A program made the position numbers and the translations under genes. This document shows, piece after piece, positions 1,282-27,111 of a DNA stretch of 64,000 nt. How positions within the stretch are numbered: position 1 is the stretch's first letter; each line of letters opens with the position of its first letter. Under the pieces are notes generated by a model. That model saw nothing but the letters and a program-made list of their open reading frames with translations, did no database searches and was not told the DNA's origin. Source of the stretch: an uncultured Candidatus Binatia bacterium. Lineage in GTDB: Bacteria; Desulfobacterota; Binatia; DP-6. The stretch is taken from positions 3,279 to 67,278 of the forward strand of contig CAZUDO010000063.1 of the NCBI GenBank assembly GCA_964618895.1. Reading direction: 5' to 3'.

Positions 1282-1995
1282 TCAGCTCGCCACCGCCCCC
1301 GCCAGCACGATCGGCCCCGTCGGCGCCGTCGACCCGCCCTCGGGCTCGATCGACACCGCGAACGCCGTGACCTCGCCGGGTCGCGGCACCGTGTCCGCGC
1401 GCGCCGCCACCGACGGCTCTGCGCCGCCGGGGAAGAGTCCCGCCGGCTCCGGCGGACGGTCGCCGCGGATGGCCCACAGCTCGTAGACCTTGCCGGCGGG
1501 CGCGGGGCCGAAGCCGGCGAGCACCACGGCGGTCTCGCCGCTGGCGGCGTCCACCAGGACACGGCCGCTGCCGCGCCCCTCGGCCGTCGGTGCCAGCGCT
1601 GCGGTGATCGTCCGCGGCCCGGAGAGGACGCGGACCACGTGCGCCTGCACTGCCAGCGCTTCGCGCAGGCCGGCGAGCGTGCGCTGCTGCTCCTCCAGGC
1701 GGACCACCAGTTGCTGACTCTGCTCCATCAGCGCGGCCAGCTCGGTTTCGCGGGTGCCCCCGCGCGTCACCTCGCGCGCCAGGAGCCCGCCCATGGCGAG
1801 CGCCACCGTCGCGGCGAGCGCGCCCGTGAGCCGCCAGCGCCGGACCGCGCCGCTACGGGCCCGCGCCGCGGCGTCGCGCCGCGCCTGCAGCAGGAGACGC
1901 GCGCGCAGCCCCGGCCGGGGCGACGTGGCGTACGCCTCGGCCAGCGCTTCCAGGGCCGCATCGTCGAGCGCACGCTCGTCGACGCCGATGGTCAC
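1282..1995 (-). CDS. rskA: Anti-sigma-K factor RskA family (short N-terminal domain, one TM helix, coiled coil, RskA C-terminal domain)
   Basis: 'GKVYELWAIRGDRPPEPAGLF' and 'FAVSIEPEGGSTAPTGPIVLAG' motifs; directly after the sigma gene. Start GTG 1995 (or 2007) is inferred. Confidence 0.85.
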   Translation of the reverse strand: MTIGVDERALDDAALEALAEAYATSPRPGLRARLLLQARRDAAARARSGAVRRWRLTGALAATVALAMGGLLAREVTRGGTRETELAALMEQSQQLVVRLEEQQRTLAGLREALAVQAHVVRVLSGPRTITAALAPTAEGRGSGRVLVDAASGETAVVLAGFGPAPAGKVYELWAIRGDRPPEPAGLFPGGAEPSVAARADTVPRPGEVTAFAVSIEPEGGSTAPTGPIVLAGAVAS

Positions 1996-1999
1996 GTCC

Positions 2000-2599
2000 T
2001 CACGCACGCGGGTCCTCTCCGGCGAACCACGCCCGCAAGCGCAGCACGCCGTCGCGAATTCTCGTCTTGACCGTCCCCAATGGCATCTGTTCCCGGGCCG
2101 CGATCTCGCTGTGCGACAGCCCCTCGAAGTACGCAATCTCGACCGCACGGCGCTGTTCGAGCGGCAGGGTCTCCAGCCCCTCCCGTACCCGCGCTGCGCG
2201 TCTCCTCTGGTCTACGGCGTCGTCGGGGGCCTCGGATGCGACCGCCGCGCTCACGTCCGTGGTGACAGTGGTTTCCGCCCGCCGGCGCGCGCCGCGCGCC
2301 CGCTGCTGGTCGAGGGTCACGTTGCGCACGATGCGGAGGAACCACGGCCGCACCGCGCCGCGGGCGGCGTCGTACCGGTCGGCGCGGTTCCACACCCGCA
2401 GGAACGCCTCCTGGACTGCGTCCTCGGCCGCCCCCGGGTCGCCGGCGATGCGGAGTGCCAGACCGTAGGCGAGCGCACCCAGGCGATCGTACAAGGCCGC
2501 GAGCGCCCCTTCGTCACCACCCGCGACGCGCGCCAGAAGCGCCGTCTCCGACTCCGCGCCCGCGACGCGCACCAGAAGCGCCGTCTCCGACTCCGCCAT
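2000..2599 (-). CDS. ECF RNA polymerase sigma factor (SigK-like) #1
   Basis: Region 2 '[13 protein letters not shown]...[15 protein letters not shown]'; region 4 '[12 protein letters not shown]...LGTVKTRIR'. Confidence 0.93.
2213..2237 (-). promoter_or_regulatory. ATCC-N16-CCGTA motif inside the sigma #1 CDS, oriented toward rskA
   Basis: Exact match to the motif at 7608-7632 and 7673-7697. It uses A-ending codons (GCA, GTA) in a GC3-rich gene. Confidence 0.4.
2521..2596. repeat. 39-bp-period tandem duplication (2 copies) in the sigma #1 N-terminus
   Basis: ccgcgacgcgc(g/a)ccagaagcgccgtctccgactccgc at 2521-2557 and 2560-2596; encodes AESETALL(V/A)RVAG twice. Confidence 0.95.
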
Positions 2600-2611: not shown

Positions 2612-3331
2612 CTACAGGACGGCGGCCTGCACCGTGATCTCCCACGCCAGCAGCACACCGACCACGACGCTCGCCACCGCCGCACAGGCGCGCACCGCCC
2701 CGTCGGCGCGCGTGAAGCGCTCGCCGATGAGCGCCAGCGGTGCTCCCAGAAGCACGCTCATGAGCGCCATGCCGCCGATGGAGCCGAGGCCGAACAGCGC
2801 CACGTAGGCGAGCGCCAGGGTGGGCGACGGAATGCTCGCCGCCACCACCAGCATGAGCCCGGCGCTGCCCGCAAGGCCGTGCACCAGGCCGATCAGAAAC
2901 GGCCGGCGCACGTGGTGGTGCCCGGTCGCCTCGTGCCGGCGGCCCGGGACGTGCACGTGCGGATGGACGTGCAGCCGCCCGCCGTGATCGTGCGTGTGGT
3001 AGTGCACCTGGCCGCCCCGCCACAGCGACCACAGCAGGTTGGTGCCGAGCCCGATCAGCATGGCCGCCACGCCGAGCTCCAGCGTCAGCGCCACACGCGC
3101 CGGAATCTGCGCGTGCAACGCAATCATCGCCACGGCCATCAGCAGGAGCGCGGTCGTGTGCCCGAGGCCCCACACCACCCCGACCAGCGACGAGCGCCAG
3201 AGCCCGCGCCGCTGACTCAAGATGGTCGAGATCGCGGCCAGGTGATCCGCATCGAGCGCGTGCCGGATACCCAGCACGAAGCCGAACCCGAGGAGCGCCA
3301 GCGGTGTGGTTGGCATCGTCGTACTCTCCAT
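2612..3331 (-). CDS. Ni/Co transporter, NiCoT/UreH(SodT)-like membrane protein
   Basis: 'GIRHALDADH' signature, 'HGLAGS' motif, His-rich loop HYHTHDH..HVHPHVH, about 6 TM helices. ATG 3331 overlaps the upstream TGA. Confidence 0.85.
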   Translation of the reverse strand: MESTTMPTTPLALLGFGFVLGIRHALDADHLAAISTILSQRRGLWRSSLVGVVWGLGHTTALLLMAVAMIALHAQIPARVALTLELGVAAMLIGLGTNLLWSLWRGGQVHYHTHDHGGRLHVHPHVHVPGRRHEATGHHHVRRPFLIGLVHGLAGSAGLMLVVAASIPSPTLALAYVALFGLGSIGGMALMSVLLGAPLALIGERFTRADGAVRACAAVASVVVGVLLAWEITVQAAVL

Positions 3332-4734
3332 CAAACGCCGATTTGTGCAAGCGCCTGCGCCACCATGGCGAGGCCCGCGACCGAGATGACCAGCGCGCTC
3401 GCCACCGGCACGTAGCGTGCGAAACGCCCGTCGAGCGGCAGGCGCTCGAAGAAGCGGCGCGCATAGACGAGCACCAGGCCGATCCCCGTCAGCACCGCCG
3501 CCAGGCCCGCGCTGAAGGCGACGATCAGGAGCAGGCCGAAGGCGACCCGTCCGAGCGCGATGGCGCCCAGCATCACCACCAGCGCCGACGGGCACGGCAG
3601 GAGCCCGCCCGACACCCCGAGCGCGACCAGGCCCCGCCAGCCGAGCGCCCCCTCGGGCGGCAGATGGGAATGGCCGTGGGGTCCATGGTCGTGTCCGTGG
3701 TGATGGTGATGGCCGTCGCCATGATCGTGTCCATGGCCCGCGCCCACGGCCCGCAGCCGGGACGACACCAGTGACGCCCCGATCGCCACCACCAGCATGC
3801 CGGACACGACGCCGAGCCACGGGAACAACCGCTCCGGCACCACGTAGTGCGACGCCATCAGGGTCACCAGGCCGAGCGCGTACACGCCGAGCGTGTGGGT
3901 GGCCGTGACCACCAGCCCGAGCACGAGCGCGTGCCGCGCCGTCCCGCGCGCCCCCACCAGGTAGGCGCCGACGACGGTCTTGCCATGCCCCGGACTGAGT
4001 CCGTGCAGGGCGCCCAGCGCCGCCGCGATGAGCAACGACGTGAGCACCACGCCCGCGCCGAGCGGCTCGCGTGTGGCGACGAGCTGGGTCAGTCGGTCGC
4101 TGAAGCGTTCGGCGCCCACGAGCGCCGCAGCCGGCGAGCGGGCGGGTGCGTCGCTCGCGCTGCCCGTCTCCACCCGGAGGCGCGCCTCGCGCACCTGCGG
4201 TGGATTCTGGAGCCGGTCGGCGGGGTACGCCCGCAGCGCCTGGCTCTGGTCCGTACGCGGCACGGTGGACTCCGCCAGCGCGACGCCCTCGCCACCGTCG
4301 GCCACCATCTCCTGCCATCCCGGCCGTCCGACGTAGTTCCGGTCCTGCAGCACGAGCGCGCCGGCGGCGCGTCCGGCCGCACGGTACGTCAGGTCGATGC
4401 GCAGCGTCGGCAGGCCTCCGGCACCGGCCACCTGCTCCATGACGCGGGTCACGGGCAGGAGTTCGACGCGCGTCCCGTCGACAGTGAGGACGAGATGGGT
4501 CGCCAGCTCGTCTGCAACCTGGGCGAGGTACGCCTCGCGCCCGCCCGCGGCGTCGACACGGCGCTGCTCCTGGTAGGCGGGTATCTCCGCCATGTCGACT
4601 ACGTATCGGACGCTGACCGTATCCGGCGCAACGCGCAACGCGGCGTAGCGATTGACAGTGAAGTTGCCGAGCGGGTGCGCTTCCACGGCCGCGGGCAACA
4701 CGAGCAGGCAGAGCGCCAGGACGCGGGCGATCAT
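3331..4734 (-). CDS. RcnA-like Ni/Co transporter with an N-terminal secreted 'HPLGNF' domain
   Basis: Signal peptide ending AVEA then HPLGNF; 'HGLSPGHGK' and 'GLLPCPSA' motifs; poly-His loop GHGHDHGDGHHHHHGHDHGPHGHSH; ATGA overlap at 4731-4734. Confidence 0.85.
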   Translation of the reverse strand: MIARVLALCLLVLPAAVEAHPLGNFTVNRYAALRVAPDTVSVRYVVDMAEIPAYQEQRRVDAAGGREAYLAQVADELATHLVLTVDGTRVELLPVTRVMEQVAGAGGLPTLRIDLTYRAAGRAAGALVLQDRNYVGRPGWQEMVADGGEGVALAESTVPRTDQSQALRAYPADRLQNPPQVREARLRVETGSASDAPARSPAAALVGAERFSDRLTQLVATREPLGAGVVLTSLLIAAALGALHGLSPGHGKTVVGAYLVGARGTARHALVLGLVVTATHTLGVYALGLVTLMASHYVVPERLFPWLGVVSGMLVVAIGASLVSSRLRAVGAGHGHDHGDGHHHHHGHDHGPHGHSHLPPEGALGWRGLVALGVSGGLLPCPSALVVMLGAIALGRVAFGLLLIVAFSAGLAAVLTGIGLVLVYARRFFERLPLDGRFARYVPVASALVISVAGLAMVAQALAQIGV

Positions 4735-6035
4735 CGGACCTCCTGTGCGAGCGCCAGACGAGGCTCGGGTGCGAGCGTCGCCAGCACAGTGCAGGCGACG
4801 GGCGCCTGGCGCAGGTCGAAGTACGGATTGATGGCGAGCGCGCGCGCCAGGTGCCGGGCGGCGCGCCGGTCGCGGCCGTGCCCCGCGGCGATCATGCCGG
4901 CGTGAAAGTGCAGCAGCGCGTCCTCGGTGCCGAGGCGAAGCGCCCGATGGGCCGCCCGCATGGCGGCGGCGTGCTGGCCGTTCTTGTAGAGCGCCCAGGC
5001 GAGCGCGTCGTCGGTGTAGATGTCGCCGCGGGTGGTCGCCTCCTGGCGGGCGAGGCGGAGCGCCTCGGGCAGGCGGCGGTCGTGGTCGGCGTAGAACAGC
5101 GCCAGCTGGCGGCCGTAGGTCGAGCCGGCGGCCTCGGCGACCCGGCCCATGTACTCGACCAGCGCGTACTGCGCTTCGGCGTCGGCCATCCGGCCGGCCG
5201 CGGCGTGCACGTCCCCCAGGGCCGCCACCATATCCGGAGCCGGCAGCTGCGCCACGGCGCGCGCGTACAGGGCCGCCGACTCGTCGAGCATGCCCTCGGC
5301 CGCACGCACACGCGCCAGGCCGGCCAGTGCCGGCGGATAGTCGGGGACGAGGTCGCGGGCGGCCGCGTACGCCTGCCCAGCCGGTGCGAGCGCGCCGGCG
5401 GCGAAGTGCTCGTGGCCGAGGTGGACGAGCGTCCAGGCGAGGCTCTCGGGATCGCGCGGGCTGCCGGCCCGGACGGCGGCCGCGAGCAGCTCGAGCGCCC
5501 CCTCGCGGTCGCCGAACAGCGAGCGCAGGAATGCGACCCGCGTGTACGCCGGCAGGCCCGGGCGCAGGTCGAGCAGACGCTGCGCCACGTCGACGGCGCG
5601 GTCGTAATCGCCGAGCTCGACGTAGGCGTCGGTGAGGGTGGCGTAGTTCCACCAATCGCGCGGCTCGCGCGCCCGCGCCGCCGCCGCCACCGCCTCTGCG
5701 CCGCGGAAGTCGTGCTGGCCGAGCAGCACCCACGCCCGCGTGCGCTCAGCCTCGTAGTGCGCCGGATCGAGCGCCAGCGCGTGCTCGACCGCCGCCATCG
5801 CCCGCCCGTAGTAGGCGGGATCCCCCGTTTCGCGCGCCTTCTGCATGAAGGCCGTGGCCAGGGTCACGTAGTGCTCGGGACGGTTCTCGCCCAGACGACG
5901 CTCGGCGGCCTCCAACGCCTGGTCGGCGCGCGACGGCGCCGCCGATGCGGGGGACCCGGGCACGAGGCCGGCGAGCGCCAGCACGAAGGCCAGCGCCCGG
6001 CCGGGTTTCCGTACGAGGTGCACGGACGCGGTCAC
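4731..6035 (-). CDS. Secreted tetratricopeptide repeat protein
   Basis: Signal peptide, 'KARETGDPAYYGRA', multiple TPR units; GTGA overlap with the DUF4331 stop. Confidence 0.85.
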   Translation of the reverse strand: MTASVHLVRKPGRALAFVLALAGLVPGSPASAAPSRADQALEAAERRLGENRPEHYVTLATAFMQKARETGDPAYYGRAMAAVEHALALDPAHYEAERTRAWVLLGQHDFRGAEAVAAAARAREPRDWWNYATLTDAYVELGDYDRAVDVAQRLLDLRPGLPAYTRVAFLRSLFGDREGALELLAAAVRAGSPRDPESLAWTLVHLGHEHFAAGALAPAGQAYAAARDLVPDYPPALAGLARVRAAEGMLDESAALYARAVAQLPAPDMVAALGDVHAAAGRMADAEAQYALVEYMGRVAEAAGSTYGRQLALFYADHDRRLPEALRLARQEATTRGDIYTDDALAWALYKNGQHAAAMRAAHRALRLGTEDALLHFHAGMIAAGHGRDRRAARHLARALAINPYFDLRQAPVACTVLATLAPEPRLALAQEVR

Positions 6036-7549
6036 TCGCCCGGATCTCGATGCCGGCGATCGCGCCCGTCGAACGGGGTGGGAAGGAACGGGAACTCGGC
6101 GGTGATGCCCTGCTCCTGAACACCGACACCGTCGCCGACGTAGTTCTGGAAATACGGCTCGCCGCCGGCGACGCGGACCACCAGGTCGGTCACGTCGTCG
6201 TTCGGCCGCCGGCCATTGGGGAAACCGGCCGGATCGGGGGTGGCGTTGCCGGCCGCATCGTGGGCGAAAGGCCCCAGGCGCTTGACGTTGGCGGCCAGAG
6301 TGGGTGGCGTCAGCAGGTTCAGGCGGAGCAGCTCGGAGTACCGCCCGTCGTTCACATCCTGATCCGCGTACTGGAGGAGCAGATGCACCACGTCGTTCCG
6401 GTCGCCCTTGGGGACCGGGACGCCGGACACCGCCTCGAGCGCGCCGGCCACGTCGAGGCGGCGGTAGAAGCGCAGGAACACGCTCTCGTCCTCCGGCTCG
6501 GTGGCGTTCCACAGGTCCTTGCTCCCGATCGCGATGATGAGCTCGTTCACCAACGGGTTCGCCATGCGCGACACCTGGATGAACTTCTTCTCGCCGCTCA
6601 GGAGCTCGCGCGGCGGCTTCCTCGGGTTGATCTTGGGCGCGCCGCGGCGGACGGTCTCCCGCTGTCGCATGGTGCTGGCGTACATGCCGATGGTGCCGGT
6701 GGCCTCGGTCGGCGCCTTGCCGTCGACGGTGAGGCGGGTCACCGGGATCTCGATCGCGATGGTGTTGATGTTGAAGCCACTGAAGTTGTTGACGCCGAAG
6801 GGGTTCGCGGTGTCGGCTGCGTCCTCGGCGGCGCTCTGCGCGGGCAGCCCGCGCCGGAGGTTCAGCGTATCGAAGACGGCGCCCAGGTCGATGGCGAAGG
6901 TCTCCGCGCGCTGGCCGGCGAAGACCCGGACGCCGGTCGCGTCGTCGGTGTAGATGCCCTGGCTGGCGAGTTGCGGGTAGTTCGGCATGGTGCGCGGGCC
7001 GATGTTGGAGGGGACGGTGAGCATCTTCTTGCCGCCGAACAGCTCGGTGCGGTCGCACTTCCGTCCGTCTTTCCGGCAGTTTCGGACTTCGGTCACGGTG
7101 AAGCGCTGCTTCCGGGCCAGGCCGGGGGCGTCGAGGCGGTCGATCGGCGGCAGCGGCCCGCCGCCGAGCGTGGCCAGGAACTGGTCGGGGTTCTCGGTCT
7201 CGGTCTGGAACGCGAACTCGTAGTTGATGTCGTCGGCCGCGCCGTCGCGGTTGTGGTCGACGTGGAGGACATAGAGGACGTGGTCGTCGAAGGCGAAGTA
7301 GTTGGGGCCGGAGCCCGGCTCCTGTCCGGGCACCACGTTCATGATGAAAGCTACGCGACGCTCGGCGAGCGGGCGCGCCACGTTGGCGGCGTCGTAGCTC
7401 ACGAAGGCGTACACGTCGGTGATGTCCGCGCCCGGGTCGAGGGTCATGAGGGGCGCTTCGCGATGACTGGCCGCGCCTGCCGGGGTCGTCCCGAGCGTGA
7501 GGGCCAGCCCGGCCGCGGCCAGGCCGCGGCAGAGTCTCGTCGTCTGCAT
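6032..7549 (-). CDS. DUF4331 family secreted protein
   Basis: 'ASHREAP', 'ADITDVYAF', 'QVSRMANPLVNE', 'GFPNGRRPNDDVTD'; SD AGGA upstream of ATG 7549. Confidence 0.9.
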   Translation of the reverse strand: MQTTRLCRGLAAAGLALTLGTTPAGAASHREAPLMTLDPGADITDVYAFVSYDAANVARPLAERRVAFIMNVVPGQEPGSGPNYFAFDDHVLYVLHVDHNRDGAADDINYEFAFQTETENPDQFLATLGGGPLPPIDRLDAPGLARKQRFTVTEVRNCRKDGRKCDRTELFGGKKMLTVPSNIGPRTMPNYPQLASQGIYTDDATGVRVFAGQRAETFAIDLGAVFDTLNLRRGLPAQSAAEDAADTANPFGVNNFSGFNINTIAIEIPVTRLTVDGKAPTEATGTIGMYASTMRQRETVRRGAPKINPRKPPRELLSGEKKFIQVSRMANPLVNELIIAIGSKDLWNATEPEDESVFLRFYRRLDVAGALEAVSGVPVPKGDRNDVVHLLLQYADQDVNDGRYSELLRLNLLTPPTLAANVKRLGPFAHDAAGNATPDPAGFPNGRRPNDDVTDLVVRVAGGEPYFQNYVGDGVGVQEQGITAEFPFLPTPFDGRDRRHRDPGE

Positions 7550-7607
7550 GGGTTCTCTTCCTTTCGTCCGTTGCCGGTTGCTGCGGGGCGCCCGCGTCAC
7601 AGGACCC

Positions 7608-7632
7608 TACGGAGGCAGAGGCGCCGGTGGAT
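7608..7632 (-). promoter_or_regulatory. Putative ECF promoter ATCC-N16-CCGTA for the DUF4331 operon
   Basis: Intergenic; reverse complement reads cATCCaccggcgcctctgcctCCGTAg. Confidence 0.65.
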
Positions 7633-7671
7633 GTCGCACCTGAGGGGGGTGCGTGCTACGAGCGCGCCAGA

Positions 7672-7697
7672 GATCCAGACGACGGGTCCCGCCCGTA
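7672..7697 (+). promoter_or_regulatory. Putative ECF promoter GATCC-N16-CCGTA for sigma #2
   Basis: gATCCagacgacgggtcccgcCCGTAc; followed by SD GAGGA (7708-7712) and GTG 7723. Confidence 0.65.
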
Positions 7698-7722
7698 CAT
7701 GCCTCCAGAGGAAGAGCATCCC

Positions 7723-8322
7723 GTGCCGTCGGCACACAGCCTGGCAGCCGTTCCACCCCGTCGGGAGGACCTCGGCGACCTGATCAGCCGCACGGCCCGG
7801 GGAGAGGAGTCCGCCCTGGCAGCCTTGTATGATCTCACCGCCGCACAGGTGAACGGCTTGGCGCTCCGCATCCTGAACGACCGGGGCGCGGCCGAGGAAG
7901 TGACCGGCGACGTGTACCTGCAGGTCTGGCGCCAGGCGGCACACTACGACGCCGACCGCGGCACGCCGCTCGCCTGGCTGCTCACGATCACGCGCAGCCG
8001 CGCCATCGACCGCCTGCGCAGTGGCGCCACGCAGCGCGCGCACACGGCACCGCTGCGGGCGGCCATCGCCTTGCCGTCGGCCGCGCCGGGGCCCGAGGAC
8101 GAGTCGCATCTCAGCCAGCGCCGGCGCTTCGTGCAGCAGGCGCTGGTGCAGCTGCCCGCCGAGCAGCGCCGCGCCATCGAGCTGGCCTACTTCGGCGGGC
8201 AGAGCCATAGTGAGATCGCGGCCACGCTCGGCGAGCCGCTCGGCACCGTGAAGACGCGCGTCCGCCTCGGCATGCGGCGGCTGCGCGACGCGCTCGGCGC
8301 CGCCGGGAAGGACGCCTTCTGA
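7723..8322 (+). CDS. ECF RNA polymerase sigma factor (SigK-like) #2
   Basis: 'AAEEVTGDVYLQVWRQAAHYDADRG..AWLLTITRSRAIDRLR', 'AYFGGQSHSEIA..LGTVKTRVR'. Start chosen from SD and promoter position; the ORF is open from 7627. Confidence 0.92.
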   Translation: MPSAHSLAAVPPRREDLGDLISRTARGEESALAALYDLTAAQVNGLALRILNDRGAAEEVTGDVYLQVWRQAAHYDADRGTPLAWLLTITRSRAIDRLRSGATQRAHTAPLRAAIALPSAAPGPEDESHLSQRRRFVQQALVQLPAEQRRAIELAYFGGQSHSEIAATLGEPLGTVKTRVRLGMRRLRDALGAAGKDAF

Positions 8323-8894
8323 TGCACACCACACTCACCGAACCCCTGCGCGAGCGCGCGGCCCTGTACGCCCTGGACGCCCTGGCGCCGGGCGAGCGTC
8401 ACGAATTCGAGCAGCATCTGGCCGGCGGGTGCGCGGTGTGTGCGTCCGAAGTGGACTCGCTCAGCGCGGTGGCGGGCAATCTCGCGCTGGCGGCCGAGCC
8501 GGTCGCACCCTCGCCCGCCGTGCGCGCCCGGGTGCTCGCCGAGGCCACGCGCCCGCAGCAGGCCACGGCCGATGCCTTCCCGCTCGTGCTGCAGGACGAG
8601 GGCACGTGGACCGAGATCGCCGCCGGCGCGCACCGCAAGATGCTCCTCGGCACGGAGACCCGGGGCGCCCTCAGCTACCTCATCCGCATGCAGCCGCGCG
8701 CGCGCGTGGGCCGGCACGTCCACGATTCGATCGAGCACTGCTACGTCGTCTCCGGCGACGCGTACATCAACGGGCGGCATCTGTTCGCCGGCGACTTCAC
8801 GGCGGCCCTCGTCGGCAGCACGCACGACGAGAGCACCACCGACGGCGGCTGCGTCCTCCTGCTCGTCGAGAGCCGGCCCGGGTTCTCGGCGTAG
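8322..8894 (+). CDS. Zinc-binding anti-sigma factor with a C-terminal ChrR-like cupin domain
   Basis: 'FEQHLAGGCAVC' ZAS-like motif; cupin 'HVHDSIEHCYVVSG' and 'GSTH'; TGATG coupling to sigma #2. Confidence 0.85.
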   Translation: MHTTLTEPLRERAALYALDALAPGERHEFEQHLAGGCAVCASEVDSLSAVAGNLALAAEPVAPSPAVRARVLAEATRPQQATADAFPLVLQDEGTWTEIAAGAHRKMLLGTETRGALSYLIRMQPRARVGRHVHDSIEHCYVVSGDAYINGRHLFAGDFTAALVGSTHDESTTDGGCVLLLVESRPGFSA

Positions 8895-8920
8895 GGGTTA
8901 CCGCCGCCGACTGCCGGCGA

Positions 8921-8945
8921 GATCCGGCGACGCCGGGCGTCCGTA
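8921..8945 (+). promoter_or_regulatory. Putative ECF promoter GATCC-N15-CCGTA for the ferritin-like gene
   Basis: Intergenic; ends 7 nt before GTG 8953, consistent with a leaderless transcript. Confidence 0.55.
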
Positions 8946-8952
8946 GTCGTCG

Positions 8953-9789
8953 GTGATGGACGGCTTCGATCTCGACAGCTACGTGGCGCGCTCCCGGGCA
9001 CTCGATCTGACCGGGATCCACTGGGAGGCGGTGCCGGACCATCCGCTGCCGCCGGAGGCACTGCGGACGCTCCGCTACATGCAGGACATCGAGAGCCACA
9101 CCGTCATCTACCTCCGTACGCTGCTGGCGACGCGCGCGGTGGACGATCCCGAGGTGGCGACGTTCTTCGCCTGCTGGCTGTACGAGGAGACTTCTCACGG
9201 CCGGGCGCTGGCGCGCTTCCTCGCCGCGGCGGGGGCGGCCATTGTCACGCGACCGCGGTCGCAGGTAAGCGTCGGGCAGCGGCTGGAAGCGGCCGCCACC
9301 GCGCTGCTCGCCAAGGCATGGCCCGACTTCGTGGCCGTGCACATGACCTGGGGCGCCATCAACGAGCTCACCACCTTGACCGGATACCGGAGGCTGGCCG
9401 CGGTGGCTGGCCATCCGGTGCTGACCGAGCTGCTGGGCCGCATCATGCGCGACGAGTCCCGGCATTTTCTCTTCTACTTCCACCAGGCCCGCGCCCGGCT
9501 GGCGCGGCCGCGCACCGCCCGGCTGGCGCGGCTGCTCGTCGATCGTTTCTGGGCGCCGGTCGGCAGTGGCGTGCAGCCGGCCGGGGAGACGCGCGCGCTG
9601 GCGCGCTACCTGTTCGACGGCACCGACGGCCGGGCGGCGGCGCGCAAGGTGGATGCGACCATTCGCGAGCTGCCGGGGTTCCAGGACGTACCGCTCCTCG
9701 ACGCCTGGATCGAGCGCGCGGTCCACGGCGGCCGCCCGCCGAGACCGCGGGCTCAGAACCGCCAGCTGAGCCCCGCCCGTACGCGATAG
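8953..9789 (+). CDS. Ferritin-like diiron-carboxylate protein (acyl-ACP desaturase-like)
   Basis: Four-helix ligand pattern: 'IESH', 'YEETSHG' (ExxH), 'INELTT', 'RDESRH' (ExxH). Confidence 0.8.
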   Translation: MMDGFDLDSYVARSRALDLTGIHWEAVPDHPLPPEALRTLRYMQDIESHTVIYLRTLLATRAVDDPEVATFFACWLYEETSHGRALARFLAAAGAAIVTRPRSQVSVGQRLEAAATALLAKAWPDFVAVHMTWGAINELTTLTGYRRLAAVAGHPVLTELLGRIMRDESRHFLFYFHQARARLARPRTARLARLLVDRFWAPVGSGVQPAGETRALARYLFDGTDGRAAARKVDATIRELPGFQDVPLLDAWIERAVHGGRPPRPRAQNRQLSPARTR

Positions 9790-10718
9790 TCCGGCATGAT
9801 CTGCAGCCCCGTGTCGTGCTGGAGCACGGGCAGATCCACCCCCGCCTCGGCGGCCAGGTTCGTTCGCCACGTGAACGCGATGCGCGGGCCGAGGAAGAGC
9901 GCCGTGATCGCCGTGTCGTCGAGCTGGCGGCCCTGCTGCTGGTCGTTGCCCTTGATTTCCCCGGAGAACACCGCCTGCAGACCGAGGGAGTACTCGTGCG
10001 TGGCGAGCGCGAACACGCCCGGCCCGGCGCTCCACATGAGGTCGTTGGCGTAACGGTAGTCGAAGGCGCCGACCGTCCGGATGGCGTACTGGCCGCTCGC
10101 CGTGACGTACAGCCGGTCCCAGCTCCAGAAGAGCTGCGCCCCCACGATGCCGTCGACGGATCCCGATCCGAGCGCCAGGTCGTGGCCGTGGACGCCACTG
10201 CCGCCGGACTCGGCGTGGTCGGCGTCCTCCTCCGCCAGCGGGCTCGGGTTCCCGCTCGGCAGCTCGAGGCCCCCGAGCACCGAGAAGCGGAACACGCTGT
10301 GCGCGGTCACGACGTGATGCACCAGGATCTGGCCGAGGAGCGACAGGTCCCCGAAGCCCGACACGGCGCCCTGGACGACACGGCCGCCCTCGAGCCGCCG
10401 GAAGTGCCGCGTGATCACCGGCAGATTCAGCTGTGCCGTCAGGCGCGGCGTGAAGGTGTAGCCGGCGACGAGCTGCGTGATCGAGCTGTTGATGCGCTCG
10501 CCGGCCGGATTGGGCACCTGGTCCCCGTCCCGTCGCAGGGTGCCGAAGTGCGTGAACTGCTCGGCCACGGCGACCCATGGCCCGGGCTGGCTCAGGCGCG
10601 CGTCGGTGGCGGTGTAGACGGCGCAGACGTCGCACGCAGATGCAGGCTCGCTCGCGGCCACGATGGCCGCCAGCATCAGGGCGATCCGGCGCCCCGACGC
10701 ACGATGTGGTCGTTCCAT
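9753..10718 (-). CDS. Outer-membrane beta-barrel 'transporter' (MetA-pathway/phenol degradation-like family) with N-terminal CxxC
   Basis: SD GGGGAG before ATG 10718; signal peptide then CDVC; 'GFGDLSL' motif; His loop DHAESGGSGVHGHD; C-terminal 'AGLSWRF'. Confidence 0.8.
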   Translation of the reverse strand: MERPHRASGRRIALMLAAIVAASEPASACDVCAVYTATDARLSQPGPWVAVAEQFTHFGTLRRDGDQVPNPAGERINSSITQLVAGYTFTPRLTAQLNLPVITRHFRRLEGGRVVQGAVSGFGDLSLLGQILVHHVVTAHSVFRFSVLGGLELPSGNPSPLAEEDADHAESGGSGVHGHDLALGSGSVDGIVGAQLFWSWDRLYVTASGQYAIRTVGAFDYRYANDLMWSAGPGVFALATHEYSLGLQAVFSGEIKGNDQQQGRQLDDTAITALFLGPRIAFTWRTNLAAEAGVDLPVLQHDTGLQIMPDYRVRAGLSWRF

Positions 10719-10740
10719 GAAGACACGTCTCCCCTGTAGA

Positions 10741-10793
10741 TGGCAGGCGCCGGACGGACGTCGTCCCTCCGGCGCGTTCCGATCGTCGTGCCA
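10741..10793. promoter_or_regulatory. Extended hairpin between the leader ORF and the barrel gene (attenuator candidate)
   Basis: Nested pairs: TGGCA 10741-45/TGCCA 10789-93; GCGCCGGA 10747-54/TCCGGCGC 10768-75; GGAC 10756-59/GTCC 10763-66. Confidence 0.5.
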
Positions 10794-10796
10794 GGA

Positions 10797-11174
10797 TCAG
10801 CCGCGAACGACTCGGGGGGGATCGGTGGGCGGCTCGGCTGCCCCGCGCGTGGGGCGGTGCCCGGCGGCCGGCGCGCCGCACAACTGCGCGAGCGCGGGGG
10901 GCAGCATGCGCTGCTCCTCGAGCGTCACACCCAGCGTGACCGGCGCATCGGTGACCGCGTCGTGACCGCAGGCGCTGCGCAGGCAGACGGTGTCGCTCGG
11001 CGTCACCGGCGCGCGGTGGCAGCCGAGCTTGCGGGCGCCGGGGGCCTCGTCCGCGCGCCGGGCGTGCATCGGGCAGCCGGGCGGGCACTCGACGCAGCCG
11101 CGCGGGAAGCTCGGCGAAATGCTGGCGAGCAACGCCAGCATCATCACCAGCGCACAAAGCCGGCGCGGTCGCAT
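10797..11174 (-). CDS. DUF2946-like small Cys/His-rich protein with a Pro-rich C-terminus (leader ORF)
   Basis: Hydrophobic N-terminus, 'CVECPPGCPMH', 'GCH', 'CLRSACGH', ends 'EPPTDPPRVVRG'; lies upstream of the barrel gene. Confidence 0.6.
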   Translation of the reverse strand: MRPRRLCALVMMLALLASISPSFPRGCVECPPGCPMHARRADEAPGARKLGCHRAPVTPSDTVCLRSACGHDAVTDAPVTLGVTLEEQRMLPPALAQLCGAPAAGHRPTRGAAEPPTDPPRVVRG

Positions 11175-11255
11175 GCCGGCGGGTTGGGTACCATCCGGGC
11201 GCCGGGGGGCGCAAGGCGGGATTCCGGAACTTCTGTGATAGGCACGCCAACCGTC

Positions 11256-12128
11256 ATGACCAGACTTTTGGCGTCCCTCGCCGTCCTGACATGCTTCGCC
11301 TGCCGCGATCCGCAGCCGCCCGCGTCCCCGACCGCGTCGCCCCCGCTCGCCAAGCCCGGTCTGCGCATCTCCATGGCCGCGTTGCACGACGCCGGCGGCG
11401 TCCCGCCCGGCTGGAAGCTGACGCCGCCCCCGGGCGACCCGGACGCGGGCCAGCGCGCCTTCGTCGACCTCGGCTGCGACTCGTGTCACCTGGTGCGCGC
11501 GGACCTCGCCGCCGCACCGCCCGACACCGAGCAGAAAGGCCCGGAGCTGACCACCATGGGTGGCCACCATCCGCCGGAGTATTTTCTGGAGTCGATCCTC
11601 ACCCCGGACGCCGTGCTGATAGAGGGTCCCGGGTACATCGGCGACGACGGGCGCTCCACCATGCCGTCGTATCCCGACCTGACGGTGACGCAGCTCGCCG
11701 ATCTGGTCGCCTACCTGCAGACGCTCACCGGCCCCGGCGGCGGGTCGGCGAAACGGCGCGGACCGATCGGCCTCGCGCAACGCCCTACCCCACCCAAGAC
11801 GAGAGCGGGCGTGTTCTACGTCCAGACCTACGATGCCAAGCCGGGCCGGCTCGCCGACCTGGAGGCCTGGTTCCACGACCCGGGCCGGGCCGCATTCCTC
11901 GCCGTCCCGGGCCTGGTGTCAATCGACACCTACGTCGACAACACGCGTCCGGGGCCGGGCATGATCGCGATGTTCGGCTTCGCCGACGACGCGGCGCTGT
12001 CGCGCTTCATGCAGGACCCCGCCGCCACGGCGCTCAAGGACAAGGTCGACGAGTTCTCCGGGGCGCACGGGCACCAGATCTTCCGCACGCCGCCGGTGTA
12101 CCGGGTGGAGAGCCTGTCGACGCCCTAG
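11256..12128 (+). CDS. Exported monoheme cytochrome c fused to a dimeric alpha+beta barrel (ABM-like) domain
   Basis: Signal/lipobox-like 'LTCFAC'; CDSCH at 11475-11489; distal Met in 'STMPSY'; C-domain 'FYVQTYDAKPGRLADLEAWF...FGFADDAALSRF'. Confidence 0.8.
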   Translation: MTRLLASLAVLTCFACRDPQPPASPTASPPLAKPGLRISMAALHDAGGVPPGWKLTPPPGDPDAGQRAFVDLGCDSCHLVRADLAAAPPDTEQKGPELTTMGGHHPPEYFLESILTPDAVLIEGPGYIGDDGRSTMPSYPDLTVTQLADLVAYLQTLTGPGGGSAKRRGPIGLAQRPTPPKTRAGVFYVQTYDAKPGRLADLEAWFHDPGRAAFLAVPGLVSIDTYVDNTRPGPGMIAMFGFADDAALSRFMQDPAATALKDKVDEFSGAHGHQIFRTPPVYRVESLSTP

Positions 12129-23105: not shown

Positions 23106-23157
23106 ACGACCTTCCCGGCGTGCGGTAGACGCCGTAGTACTCGTCGCGGATGGCTAC

Positions 23158-25678: not shown

Positions 25679-25716
25679 AACACCGATTGACACTCGGTGT
25701 TCTCCGCCCGTATCGT
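25679..25716 (+). promoter_or_regulatory. Sigma70 promoter TTGACA-N18-TATCGT with an 8-bp inverted repeat around the -35 box (operator candidate)
   Basis: AACACCGA (25679-86) ttgacac TCGGTGTT (25694-701); TTGACA 25687-92; TATCGT 25711-16. Confidence 0.7.
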
Positions 25717-25723
25717 TCCTGCT

Positions 25724-26122
25724 GTGACAAGGCGCAGTTCCCTTCCCGTCCTTGGCGAACTCGAGCGCGCGGTGATGGACTGTCTCTGGACGAACGGTCC
25801 AGCCGACGCGAAGGCCCTCTACCGTACGATCGGGCGGCCGCGACGGATCACGCTCAACACCGTGCAGTCCACAGTGGAGCGGCTGTACCGGAAGGGTCTG
25901 CTGGCGCGCGACAAGGTGAGCCACGCGTACGTCTATGCGCCGCGGCTCACACGTGAGGCGTTTGGTGCGCAGGTCATGCACGGACTCGTCCGGGACCTGC
26001 TCGGGGGCACACTCGAGCCCGTCCTTGCCGCGTTCGTCGACCTGACAGCACGCACCGGCGACGACGAACTCGCCCGCCTTGAACGCCTGGTGGCAGCCCG
26101 TCGGGAGCGAAGCACGCGATGA
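25724..26122 (+). CDS. BlaI/MecI/CopY family repressor
   Basis: 'LGELERAVMDCLW', 'TLNTVQSTVERLYRKGLL.R.K.SHAYVY'. Start GTG 25724 is inferred from the promoter. Confidence 0.9.
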   Translation: MTRRSSLPVLGELERAVMDCLWTNGPADAKALYRTIGRPRRITLNTVQSTVERLYRKGLLARDKVSHAYVYAPRLTREAFGAQVMHGLVRDLLGGTLEPVLAAFVDLTARTGDDELARLERLVAARRERSTR

Positions 26123-27111
26123 CACCGGCGGTCGGACTGCTTCAGCTGTCGCTGCTTGCTCTGGTGACCCTGACACTCCTCAGTTCCGTGGCGTCGGGAG
26201 CCCTCTACGTCGCTCTTCGCCGCCGCCTCGGCCGCTTGGCGCCAGGACCGCGCACGACGGCGCTCCTTCTGTGGACGGCGACCCCGGCGCTCCTCGGGCT
26301 CGTGCTGACCAGTCTCTGCTTCATCCCCTCGCTGCTCACAATTCTCGCGGGTAGCGGCGGGGACCACTGTGTTACCCACCCGGATCACCACATTCATCTC
26401 TGCCTGCTTCACCCTCCCCACGACGCCGGGAGCGTCCTCGGCTGGGCTCTGCTGGCCGCGATCGCTTCCGTTGCCGCCCTGATCTTCGGGCGCCACGCGT
26501 CGCTGCTGCAACGCGCCCGTCGCGCCCTTCGACCTCTTCTCTCGGGTGCCGAGCTCGATGGCACACGCACGGTCGCGTGGGTTCGCTCGCCGGCGCCGCT
26601 CGCGCTCACGGTCGGGGTCTTGAGGCCGCGCGTCGTCGTCTCGGACACCCTTCGACAACGACTCCCGCAGCCGTTGCTGAGGGCAGTCCTGGAACACGAA
26701 GCGGCCCACCAGCGCCGAGGGGACGTCCTTCGCAAGGCTGTCGCTTCGGTCTTTGCACTTCTGCACTGGCCGACAGTCAGAAGGCGTCTTCTGGACGACC
26801 TGAGCCTGGCCTGTGAACAGGCGGCCGACGCTGAGGCAGCCGGAAGACTCCAAGACCCGCTTCTCGTCGCCGATGCGATCCTCGCCGTCGAGCGCCTCAC
26901 GGCGAGTCATGGCCCTGAGGCATTCAGGTTCGCCGCCGCCTTCGGTGGCCCCCACCTCACCGCCCGCGTCGAGGAACTCCTCCACCCGAGTGATCCCGTT
27001 GCCGCCATCAAGTTTCGCCGCTGGATCGCTGCGGCCGCCGGTGCAGCCTTCCTCCTCGCCGAGCCGATCCATCACGTCGTAGAGACGTTTCTCACGCCGC
27101 TCGCGCGATAG
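26119..27111 (+). CDS. M56 family (BlaR1-like) membrane metallopeptidase sensor
   Basis: 'HEAAH' (HExxH), 'CEQAAD'; His/Cys loop DHCVTHPDHHIHLCLLHPPH. Confidence 0.9.
   Translation: MTPAVGLLQLSLLALVTLTLLSSVASGALYVALRRRLGRLAPGPRTTALLLWTATPALLGLVLTSLCFIPSLLTILAGSGGDHCVTHPDHHIHLCLLHPPHDAGSVLGWALLAAIASVAALIFGRHASLLQRARRALRPLLSGAELDGTRTVAWVRSPAPLALTVGVLRPRVVVSDTLRQRLPQPLLRAVLEHEAAHQRRGDVLRKAVASVFALLHWPTVRRRLLDDLSLACEQAADAEAAGRLQDPLLVADAILAVERLTASHGPEAFRFAAAFGGPHLTARVEELLHPSDPVAAIKFRRWIAAAAGAAFLLAEPIHHVVETFLTPLAR

Follow-up and report, generated by a model that had tools for sequence, protein, structure and literature searches.

A conserved ECF-type promoter motif upstream of a DUF4331 operon, a sigma/anti-sigma pair and a ferritin-like gene in a Candidatus Binatia genome

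The DNA analyzed here is a stretch of 64,000 nucleotides (nt) from an uncultured Candidatus Binatia bacterium (contig CAZUDO010000063.1, positions 3,279 to 67,278), which is referred to in its full length as the window. Close to one end of it, a putative promoter motif for sigma factors of the extracytoplasmic function (ECF) type precedes an operon beginning with a DUF4331 gene, a divergently oriented gene pair for a sigma factor and its anti-sigma factor, and a gene for a ferritin-like protein, while a second, paralogous sigma factor is encoded within the DUF4331 operon. Homologous loci were collected in two scans and are numbered with the prefix L. The first scan covered one genome per species and yielded 67 DUF4331 loci (65 usable), of which the 300 nt upstream of the gene were analyzed on the sense strand. 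The second searched metagenomes with the ferritin-like protein and yielded 80 loci (79 usable), of which 200 nt upstream were analyzed.

Genes and Operon Structure

The minus-strand operon starts with the gene for a DUF4331 protein carrying a signal peptide (6032..7549; Pfam PF14224, E = 7e-94), whose homologues are 60–80% identical across the Binatia. Its ATG codon at 7549 is preceded by the ribosome-binding site AGGAAGAG and a leader of about 50 nt, counted from a predicted transcription start near 7601. The start of the following gene for a TPR protein (4731..6035, minus; recognized by Pfam TPR families and conserved in synteny) overlaps the DUF4331 stop codon, and the two genes therefore belong to one operon. 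Further downstream on the same strand are the genes for a membrane protein combining an N-terminal periplasmic domain with a NicO/RcnA-like Ni/Co transporter domain and a His-rich loop (3331..4734; Pfam NicO, NCBIfam NF007454), a second NicO-family membrane protein (2612..3331; Pfam, NCBIfam), an ECF sigma factor (sigma I, 2000..2599; Pfam) whose best family match is SigK-like, and an RskA-type membrane anti-sigma factor with one transmembrane helix (1282..2007; Pfam RskA_C, E = 1.7e-20), the start of which overlaps the stop of sigma I. The sigma I gene begins 12 nt after its predecessor, and the other neighbours overlap or are separated by gaps of at most 12 nt, so that an internal promoter for sigma I would not fit into this six-gene operon. 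No copy of the promoter motif was found within 300 nt 5′ of sigma I, either in the window or in the orthologous loci L002, L003, L006, L021 and L066. Because sigma I lacks a motif of its own and follows the preceding gene at such a short distance, sigma I and RskA would be transcribed from the DUF4331 promoter and do not form a separate unit.

On the plus strand, the gene for the second ECF sigma factor (sigma II, 7723..8322; Pfam) is followed by that for a cytoplasmic anti-sigma factor of 190 amino acids (8322..8894), which consists of an N-terminal domain with an HxxxxCxxC motif and a C-terminal ChrR-type cupin with the pattern HxHxxxE...H (Pfam Cupin_7, E = 1e-13; RskA_N; and zf-HC2, the latter match being below the cut-off). 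The likely start codon of sigma II is the GTG at 7723, which follows the ribosome-binding site GAGGAAGAG and a predicted transcription start near 7704; it is preferred over the ATG at 7699 because the latter directly abuts the −10 element and lies ahead of the predicted transcription start. A gap of 58 nt, which contains the third promoter, separates the anti-sigma gene from the gene for the ferritin-like diiron protein (8956..9789, plus), a relative of acyl-ACP desaturases and R2lox that contains ExxH motifs (weak match to Pfam PF03405, FA_desaturase_2-like). The two sigma factors are 47% identical, and no further paralogue is encoded in the 64-kb window. A first-pass annotation made from the DNA sequence alone had called the two sigma factors paralogous and assigned a membrane RskA partner to the one and a cytoplasmic Zn/cupin partner to the other. 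Its gene assignments are borne out by Pfam, with a zinc-finger plus cupin partner for sigma II, and the paralogy by the sequence identity.

Downstream of the ferritin-like gene lies a convergent gene for a secreted protein of 321 amino acids without any family match (9753–10718, minus; a 55% identical relative is present in L066), followed by an open reading frame with a CxxCH haem-binding motif (10740–12128, plus). Neither of them carries the promoter motif.

Copies of the Motif in the Window

The motif had originally been formulated as ATCC-N15/16-CCGTA and is refined here to a core of ATCC(R)-N16/17-CGTA. Direct reading of the sequence finds the three copies at the coordinates and on the strands given in the first-pass annotation. 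The promoter of the DUF4331 operon (7608..7632, minus) consists of the −35 element ATCC(A) at 7632–7629, a 17-nt spacer and the −10 element CGTA at 7611–7608 (CCGTA at 7612–7608). The sigma II promoter, which would be autoregulatory, lies on the plus strand at 7673..7697, with (GAG)ATCC(A) at 7673–7676, again a 17-nt spacer, and CGTA at 7694–7697 (CCGTA at 7693–7697). The third copy, the candidate promoter of the ferritin-like gene, occupies 8922..8945 on the plus strand, with (GAG)ATCC(G) at 8922–8925, a 16-nt spacer and CGTA at 8942–8945; in the earlier form it reads GATCC at 8921–8925, 15 nt, and CCGTA at 8941–8945. All three are intergenic, correctly oriented and situated 7–60 nt 5′ of the start codons.

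Searching the 64 kb on both strands with ATCC-N15/16-CCGTA gave four matches compared to 0.42 expected, and at least four matches occurred in 0 of 100 dinucleotide shuffles of the window. At the rate derived from this search, about 0.009 matches would be expected in the 1.34 kb that hold the three promoters, and finding three there has a Poisson probability of about 1e-7. The fourth exact match (2237–2213, minus) is located within the sigma I coding sequence, so the statement that the window contains no other exact intergenic copy is upheld. Relaxing the −10 element to CGTA added a single match, a perfect TGATCC-N16-CGTA at 25848–25825 (minus). The two intragenic copies compare to about 1.4 expected by chance in this relaxed search.

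These additional sites were considered individually. The copy at 25848–25825 was discarded as a promoter, being antisense within a BlaI/Penicillinase_R-type repressor gene (25697–26122, plus) and compatible with background; this gene is followed by one for a BlaR1-like M56 peptidase (26119–27111). The copy at 2237–2213 sits in the inter-domain linker of sigma I, about 205 nt 5′ of the RskA start codon. As an internal promoter it was rejected: it is exact in 3/10 orthologues, and codons explain the aligned sequence otherwise. At the aligned position of nine orthologues, the exact motif recurs in two (L021, L147), and the other seven read GCCC...GCGG or similar. It is probably a coincidence of the codons for S-E-x-P-D-[DE]-A-V, although it may conceivably drive weak transcription of rskA from within the sigma I gene. 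A one-mismatch site at 23112–23136, pointed out in the first-pass annotation, does exist, but such matches are not enriched in the window (12 vs. 8.35 expected). The base following its TTCC is not a purine, the open reading frame downstream has no family match, and the site was dismissed. Sigma-70-type promoters, terminators and Rfam elements were looked for in the locus and not found, and neither was a second motif family.

Conservation of the Motif across Genomes

The DUF4331 loci stem from Binatia, Methylococcales, Nitrospirales, Nitrosomonas, Rokubacteria/Methylomirabilota, Myxococcota, Acidobacteriota, Burkholderiales and Verrucomicrobiota. In 46 of the 65 loci, which come from at least eight phyla, ATCC-N16/17-CGTA was present 5′ of the DUF4331 gene, compared to 0.8 expected from the locus-wide background. 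It also precedes the ferritin-like gene in 68 of 79 loci. An unbiased count of all dyads of two 4-mers separated by a gap ranked ATCC-N16/17-CGTA first in both upstream sets, and the motif is conserved in AT-rich and GC-rich genomes alike. A close relative, L069, retains all three promoters at the same positions. The flanks follow rules as well: the orthologous sites never have a T before ATCC and always have a purine after it, and the three sites of the window comply. The assignment of the motif as an ECF-type promoter preceding all transcription units of the locus is supported by its conservation upstream of the orthologues. The motif itself needed trimming, as the ATCC...CGTA core is conserved but the extra C of CCGTA is kept in only about 40% of the orthologous sites.

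In the window, the start codon of the ferritin-like gene follows the CGTA element by only 7–10 nt, the conserved start in homologous loci being the ATG at 8956 and the alternative a GTG at 8953. Given this distance, the mRNA is predicted to be leaderless or nearly so. The start codon lies at most 14 nt after CGTA in 27 of the 68 motif-bearing ferritin-like loci, which indicates that the near-leaderless arrangement is itself conserved.

From this comparison, we are highly confident that the three sites are true ECF promoters of a type already known and that they are deeply conserved. Their architecture, with ATCC plus a purine as the −35 element, a spacer of 16–17 nt and CGTA as the −10 element, would place them in the RpoE(ECF11)/SigK superclade.

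Which Sigma Factor Reads the Motif

Sigma factors of both lineages are associated with the motif. In about 25 loci, a sigma II-type gene with a ChrR-like anti-sigma gene is divergent to DUF4331, with the motif on both strands, back to back. This arrangement occurs in Binatia and in all Nitrospirales, the latter of which lack sigma I. The operon leading from DUF4331 to sigma I and RskA is specific to Binatia (L002, L003, L006, L021, L066); in L003 and L021 it has an N17 promoter and no sigma II gene nearby. Conversely, sigma I-type genes that head their own operons (61–70% identical, with an RskA partner) carry the motif in seven independent contexts (L071, L076, L107, L148, L150, L152, L153). 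There, the ferritin-like gene is a divergent or co-transcribed neighbour, usually with promoters back to back, whereas in the window, L069, L070 and L083 it follows sigma II and its ChrR-like anti-sigma factor. Either lineage therefore adjoins the same ferritin-like or DUF4331 targets, depending on the genome. In an alignment of 46 sigma factors, both lineages have the same sigma-4 helix for recognition of the −35 element, PLGTVKTR[IV]R, which differs little from that of Rhodobacter sphaeroides RpoE (PLGTIKSRIR). The architecture combining sigma I with sigma II is kept in three diverged genomes, represented by the window, L002 and L006. Two of these loci (L002, 7663–9790; L006, 7623–9739) contain two tandem sigma II-type/ChrR-like pairs, each with its own motif, in addition to sigma I-RskA, amounting to three input modules per locus.

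Because the operons of both lineages carry the motif themselves, the −35 helices are identical and neighbouring targets are shared, we favour convergent control, in which both local sigma factors use the promoters and a single regulon receives the input of the membrane sensor and of the cytoplasmic cupin sensor, which amplify each other; we consider this reasonably probable, though clearly less secure than the promoters themselves. Three units would be controlled in this way: the six-gene operon DUF4331-TPR-NicO-NicO-sigma I-RskA, driven from the promoter at 7608..7632; the autoregulated pair of sigma II and its cupin anti-sigma factor; and a leaderless or near-leaderless mRNA for the diiron oxidase- or desaturase-like protein. 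Both paralogues would recognize all three promoters, so that release of sigma II from the cytoplasmic zinc/cupin anti-sigma factor, or of sigma I from the membrane-bound RskA, would switch on the common regulon. Each release would amplify both sigma/anti-sigma pairs, combining convergent inputs with cross- and auto-feedback. Joint use of the promoters in this organism, the transcription starts at about 7601 (minus), 7704 (plus) and 8952–8955 (plus), and the nature of the signals are what we infer; that the signals are envelope and cytoplasmic redox or metal cues, as suggested in the first-pass annotation, is a conjecture. The same annotation had proposed that the two sigma factors form an OR gate over one regulon. 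The comparative data favour the shared regulon, but not a plain OR gate: sigma I occupies the fifth position in the DUF4331 operon, and the circuit therefore includes feed-forward or positive feedback.

Several observations weigh against the joint use of the promoters. About 30% of the DUF4331 loci lack an exact motif, and many motif-bearing loci have no sigma gene nearby, making adjacency circumstantial. The sigma-2 region reading the −10 element is lineage-specific (FLRVWRRA...RPWFLRLVRN vs. YLQVWRQA...RSRAIDRLR), which would allow for quantitative or even qualitative selectivity. Moreover, the base 5′ of ATCC is a G in the sigma II and ferritin-like promoters and a C in the DUF4331 promoter, although without a consistent rule. 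Two simple criteria for separating the lineages were tried and abandoned. A partition by spacer length, with N16 for sigma I and N17 for sigma II, fitted the first three sigma I-type promoters (N16 in L071, L076 and L107) and failed with four more, which have N17 (L148, L150, L152, L153); the base preceding ATCC did not separate the lineages either, as it follows no consistent pattern across the loci.

The differing sigma-2 regions bear on a hierarchical alternative, in which only sigma II, with its ChrR-like input, reads the three promoters. The sigma I-RskA pair would then be an output of the DUF4331 operon, with different promoters as its targets or only some of the three, for instance the N16 promoter of the ferritin-like gene, and there would be no OR gate. 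Such a cascade would also suit the lack of a separate sigma I promoter in the window, the linkage of DUF4331 to sigma II-type pairs in phyla without sigma I, and the spacers of the window itself, which are N17 for sigma II and DUF4331 and N16 for the ferritin-like gene. We nevertheless regard it as unlikely, as the sigma I-type genes with their own promoters use the same core with either spacer (N16 in three loci, N17 in four), which makes the spacer useless as a separator; the DUF4331...sigma I operons of L003 and L021 have an N17 promoter with no sigma II nearby; the sigma-4 helices are identical; and no second motif family was found in the locus.

Alternatively, the genome may encode, at another site, a third ECF sigma factor of this clade that mainly serves these promoters, leaving the local sigma factors a minor or condition-specific role. 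This would account for the many motif-bearing DUF4331 and ferritin-like loci without a sigma gene within 6–10 kb, and L002 and L006 indeed contain three pairs of the clade each. We consider this option still less probable than a cascade, since the window holds no further paralogue and in many lineages the promoters of sigma and target genes are closely paired, divergent and back to back. Finally, the copies of the motif might have arisen by chance or from base composition in GC-rich intergenic DNA. The two further, probably meaningless intragenic copies can be cited for this reading, which is practically negligible in view of the shuffles, the conservation across phyla in AT-rich and GC-rich genomes and the unbiased dyad ranking.

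Functions of the Putative Targets

An AlphaFold2 model of the ferritin-like protein reached a mean confidence (pLDDT) of 79, and its best Foldseek matches were desaturases and R2-like ligand-binding oxidases (R2lox), albeit weak ones (TM score 0.56, E of about 0.015). The model of the DUF4331 protein (pLDDT 51) was too poor for a fold search or interpretation; its profile has no sequence relatives in the PDB, and we found no mention of DUF4331 in the searchable literature.

Outside the Binatia, the operon consists of the genes for DUF4331, a TPR protein and a membrane protein in which a DUF6702-like periplasmic domain is combined with a HupE_UreJ_2 domain. In nitrifiers and methanotrophs, this HupE_UreJ_2 domain takes the position of the NicO protein, whereas the Binatia have the NicO type instead. 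The three-gene module is found in Nitrospirales, Methyloglobulus and Nitrosomonas (L034, 11586–13915; L005, 3829–6143; L039, 11681–13998), and no literature was found on this conserved module of nitrifiers and methanotrophs. HupE/UreJ and NicO are both families of Ni/Co transporters, and on this ground the DUF4331 operon may reasonably be suspected to serve in periplasm-to-membrane metal handling.

Two variants of the target genes were observed. In L153/L154 (9201–11853), an operon contains the genes for the ferritin-like protein, a sigma I-type factor, RskA and a bacterial globin behind a single motif located 12 nt 5′ of the first start codon, which connects the regulon with a protein that binds O2 or NO. 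In L021 (5587–5889, minus), an internally deleted ferritin-like remnant of 100 amino acids adjoins DUF4331 without a sigma II pair in between and has kept the motif and the leaderless start; a pseudogene and an artefact of the assembly are both conceivable.

Wider Reading

Taken together, the loci allow a broader proposal, which we put forward tentatively and hold to be possible rather than probable. It assumes a regulon spanning many phyla that is defined by one invariant promoter, ATCCR-N16/17-CGTA, and one clade of ECF sigma factors, and comprises the periplasmic DUF4331 protein, the TPR protein, a Ni/Co-type transporter (NicO or HupE/UreJ) and the leaderless diiron oxidase. The anti-sigma module of the clade would have changed repeatedly from membrane RskA to the cytoplasmic ChrR-like cupin type or back, and in Binatia two or three modules would have been stacked, integrating signals from the periplasm and the cytoplasm. 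The spread over nitrifiers, methanotrophs, Methylomirabilota/Rokubacteria and Binatia hints at metal supply or protection for a metal-dependent oxidative metabolism.

A search of the literature retrieved no papers linking RskA or ECF sigma factors to ferritin-like proteins or DUF4331, and the regulon itself as well as the stacking of different anti-sigma inputs appear to be undescribed. The kind of mechanism is known from autoregulated ECF promoters and overlapping regulons of paralogues, and no new regulatory principle is involved. With the precise promoter signature, valid over a range from the AT-rich Nitrospira and Nitrosomonas up to Binatia of 70% GC, DUF4331 and an uncharacterized diiron protein become parts of a defined and testable regulon, which is useful for annotating uncultured soil lineages. 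The locus also offers a natural example of one set of output promoters connected to structurally different anti-sigma sensors and may inform on the recombination of ECF modules.

Comparison with Known Systems

Among published consensus sequences, TGATCC-N16-CGTA of the ECF11 group comes closest; it is documented for PSPTO_1043 of Pseudomonas syringae in a table based on chromatin immunoprecipitation and quantitative reverse-transcription PCR (PMC5507510). It fits the motif better than the SigK-type promoters with a CCGAA-like −10 element to which the first-pass annotation had likened it; the −10 element here is CGTA. Compared to the ECF11 RpoE-ChrR systems (R. sphaeroides sigmaE, P. syringae PSPTO_1043), the ferritin-like promoter has the exact spacing (GATCC-N16-CGTA), and the sigma II (GATCC-N17-CGTA) and DUF4331 (CATCC-N17-CGTA) promoters share the invariant ATCC and CGTA core. 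Two of the three promoters differ from ECF11 in having a spacer of 17 nt, and neither the T nor the G of TGATCC is conserved. Further common traits are the sigma/anti-sigma operon under autoregulation, which is predicted in our case, and the nearly identical sigma-4 helix. ChrR anti-sigma factors combine a zinc-binding N-terminal domain with a C-terminal cupin carrying HxHxxxE...H ligands (PMC6852236), and the anti-sigma factor of sigma II partly resembles them in its putative zinc-type N-terminal domain and in a cupin with the same ligand pattern. However, it is shorter than ChrR with its 190 amino acids, scores only 29 bits with the ChrR model TIGR02451 (cut-off 124.5) and contains H-x4-C-x2-C instead of H-x3-C-x2-C. 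Both sigma factors also score higher on SigK-type than on RpoE models, and the solved structures most closely related to sigma II are those of Mycobacterium tuberculosis SigK (4nqw, E = 5e-35) and, next, R. sphaeroides RpoE (2q1z, E = 1e-23). The targets differ as well: the published ECF11 core regulon consists of genes for photolyase and furan fatty acids and does not include the DUF4331 operon or the diiron protein, and within the 64 kb analyzed no photolyase or cyclopropane/furan fatty-acid gene carries the motif.

With the SigK-RskA system of M. tuberculosis (ECF18/ECF19), the locus shares the order of sigma I followed by a single-pass RskA_C membrane anti-sigma factor, a partner that sigma II lacks, and a small, locally encoded regulon. 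SigK contains a conserved redox-active cysteine pair (PMC7509140, PMC7826278), which is absent here, as neither sigma factor has any cysteine. Both also remain below the cut-off of 226 bits of the SigK model NF007228 (184 bits for sigma II, 148 bits for sigma I), and the −10 element of the promoters here is CGTA and not the CCGAA-like sequence attributed to SigK in the first-pass annotation.

Finally, several related ECF sigma factors with overlapping promoter sets but their own anti-sigma factors and signals are known from Bacillus subtilis (sigmaM, W, X and V; PMC5758882), and Azospirillum brasilense uses two pairs, RpoE1-ChrR1 and RpoE2-ChrR2, in its oxidative-stress response (PMC8226930). 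The locus of the window resembles these cases in its multiple related sigma factors and, by prediction, in their overlapping promoters. It differs from them in that the anti-sigma sensors are structurally unlike each other, a periplasmic RskA_C domain versus a cytoplasmic cupin, and in that both are wired into a single locus, with one of the sigma factors embedded in the target operon.

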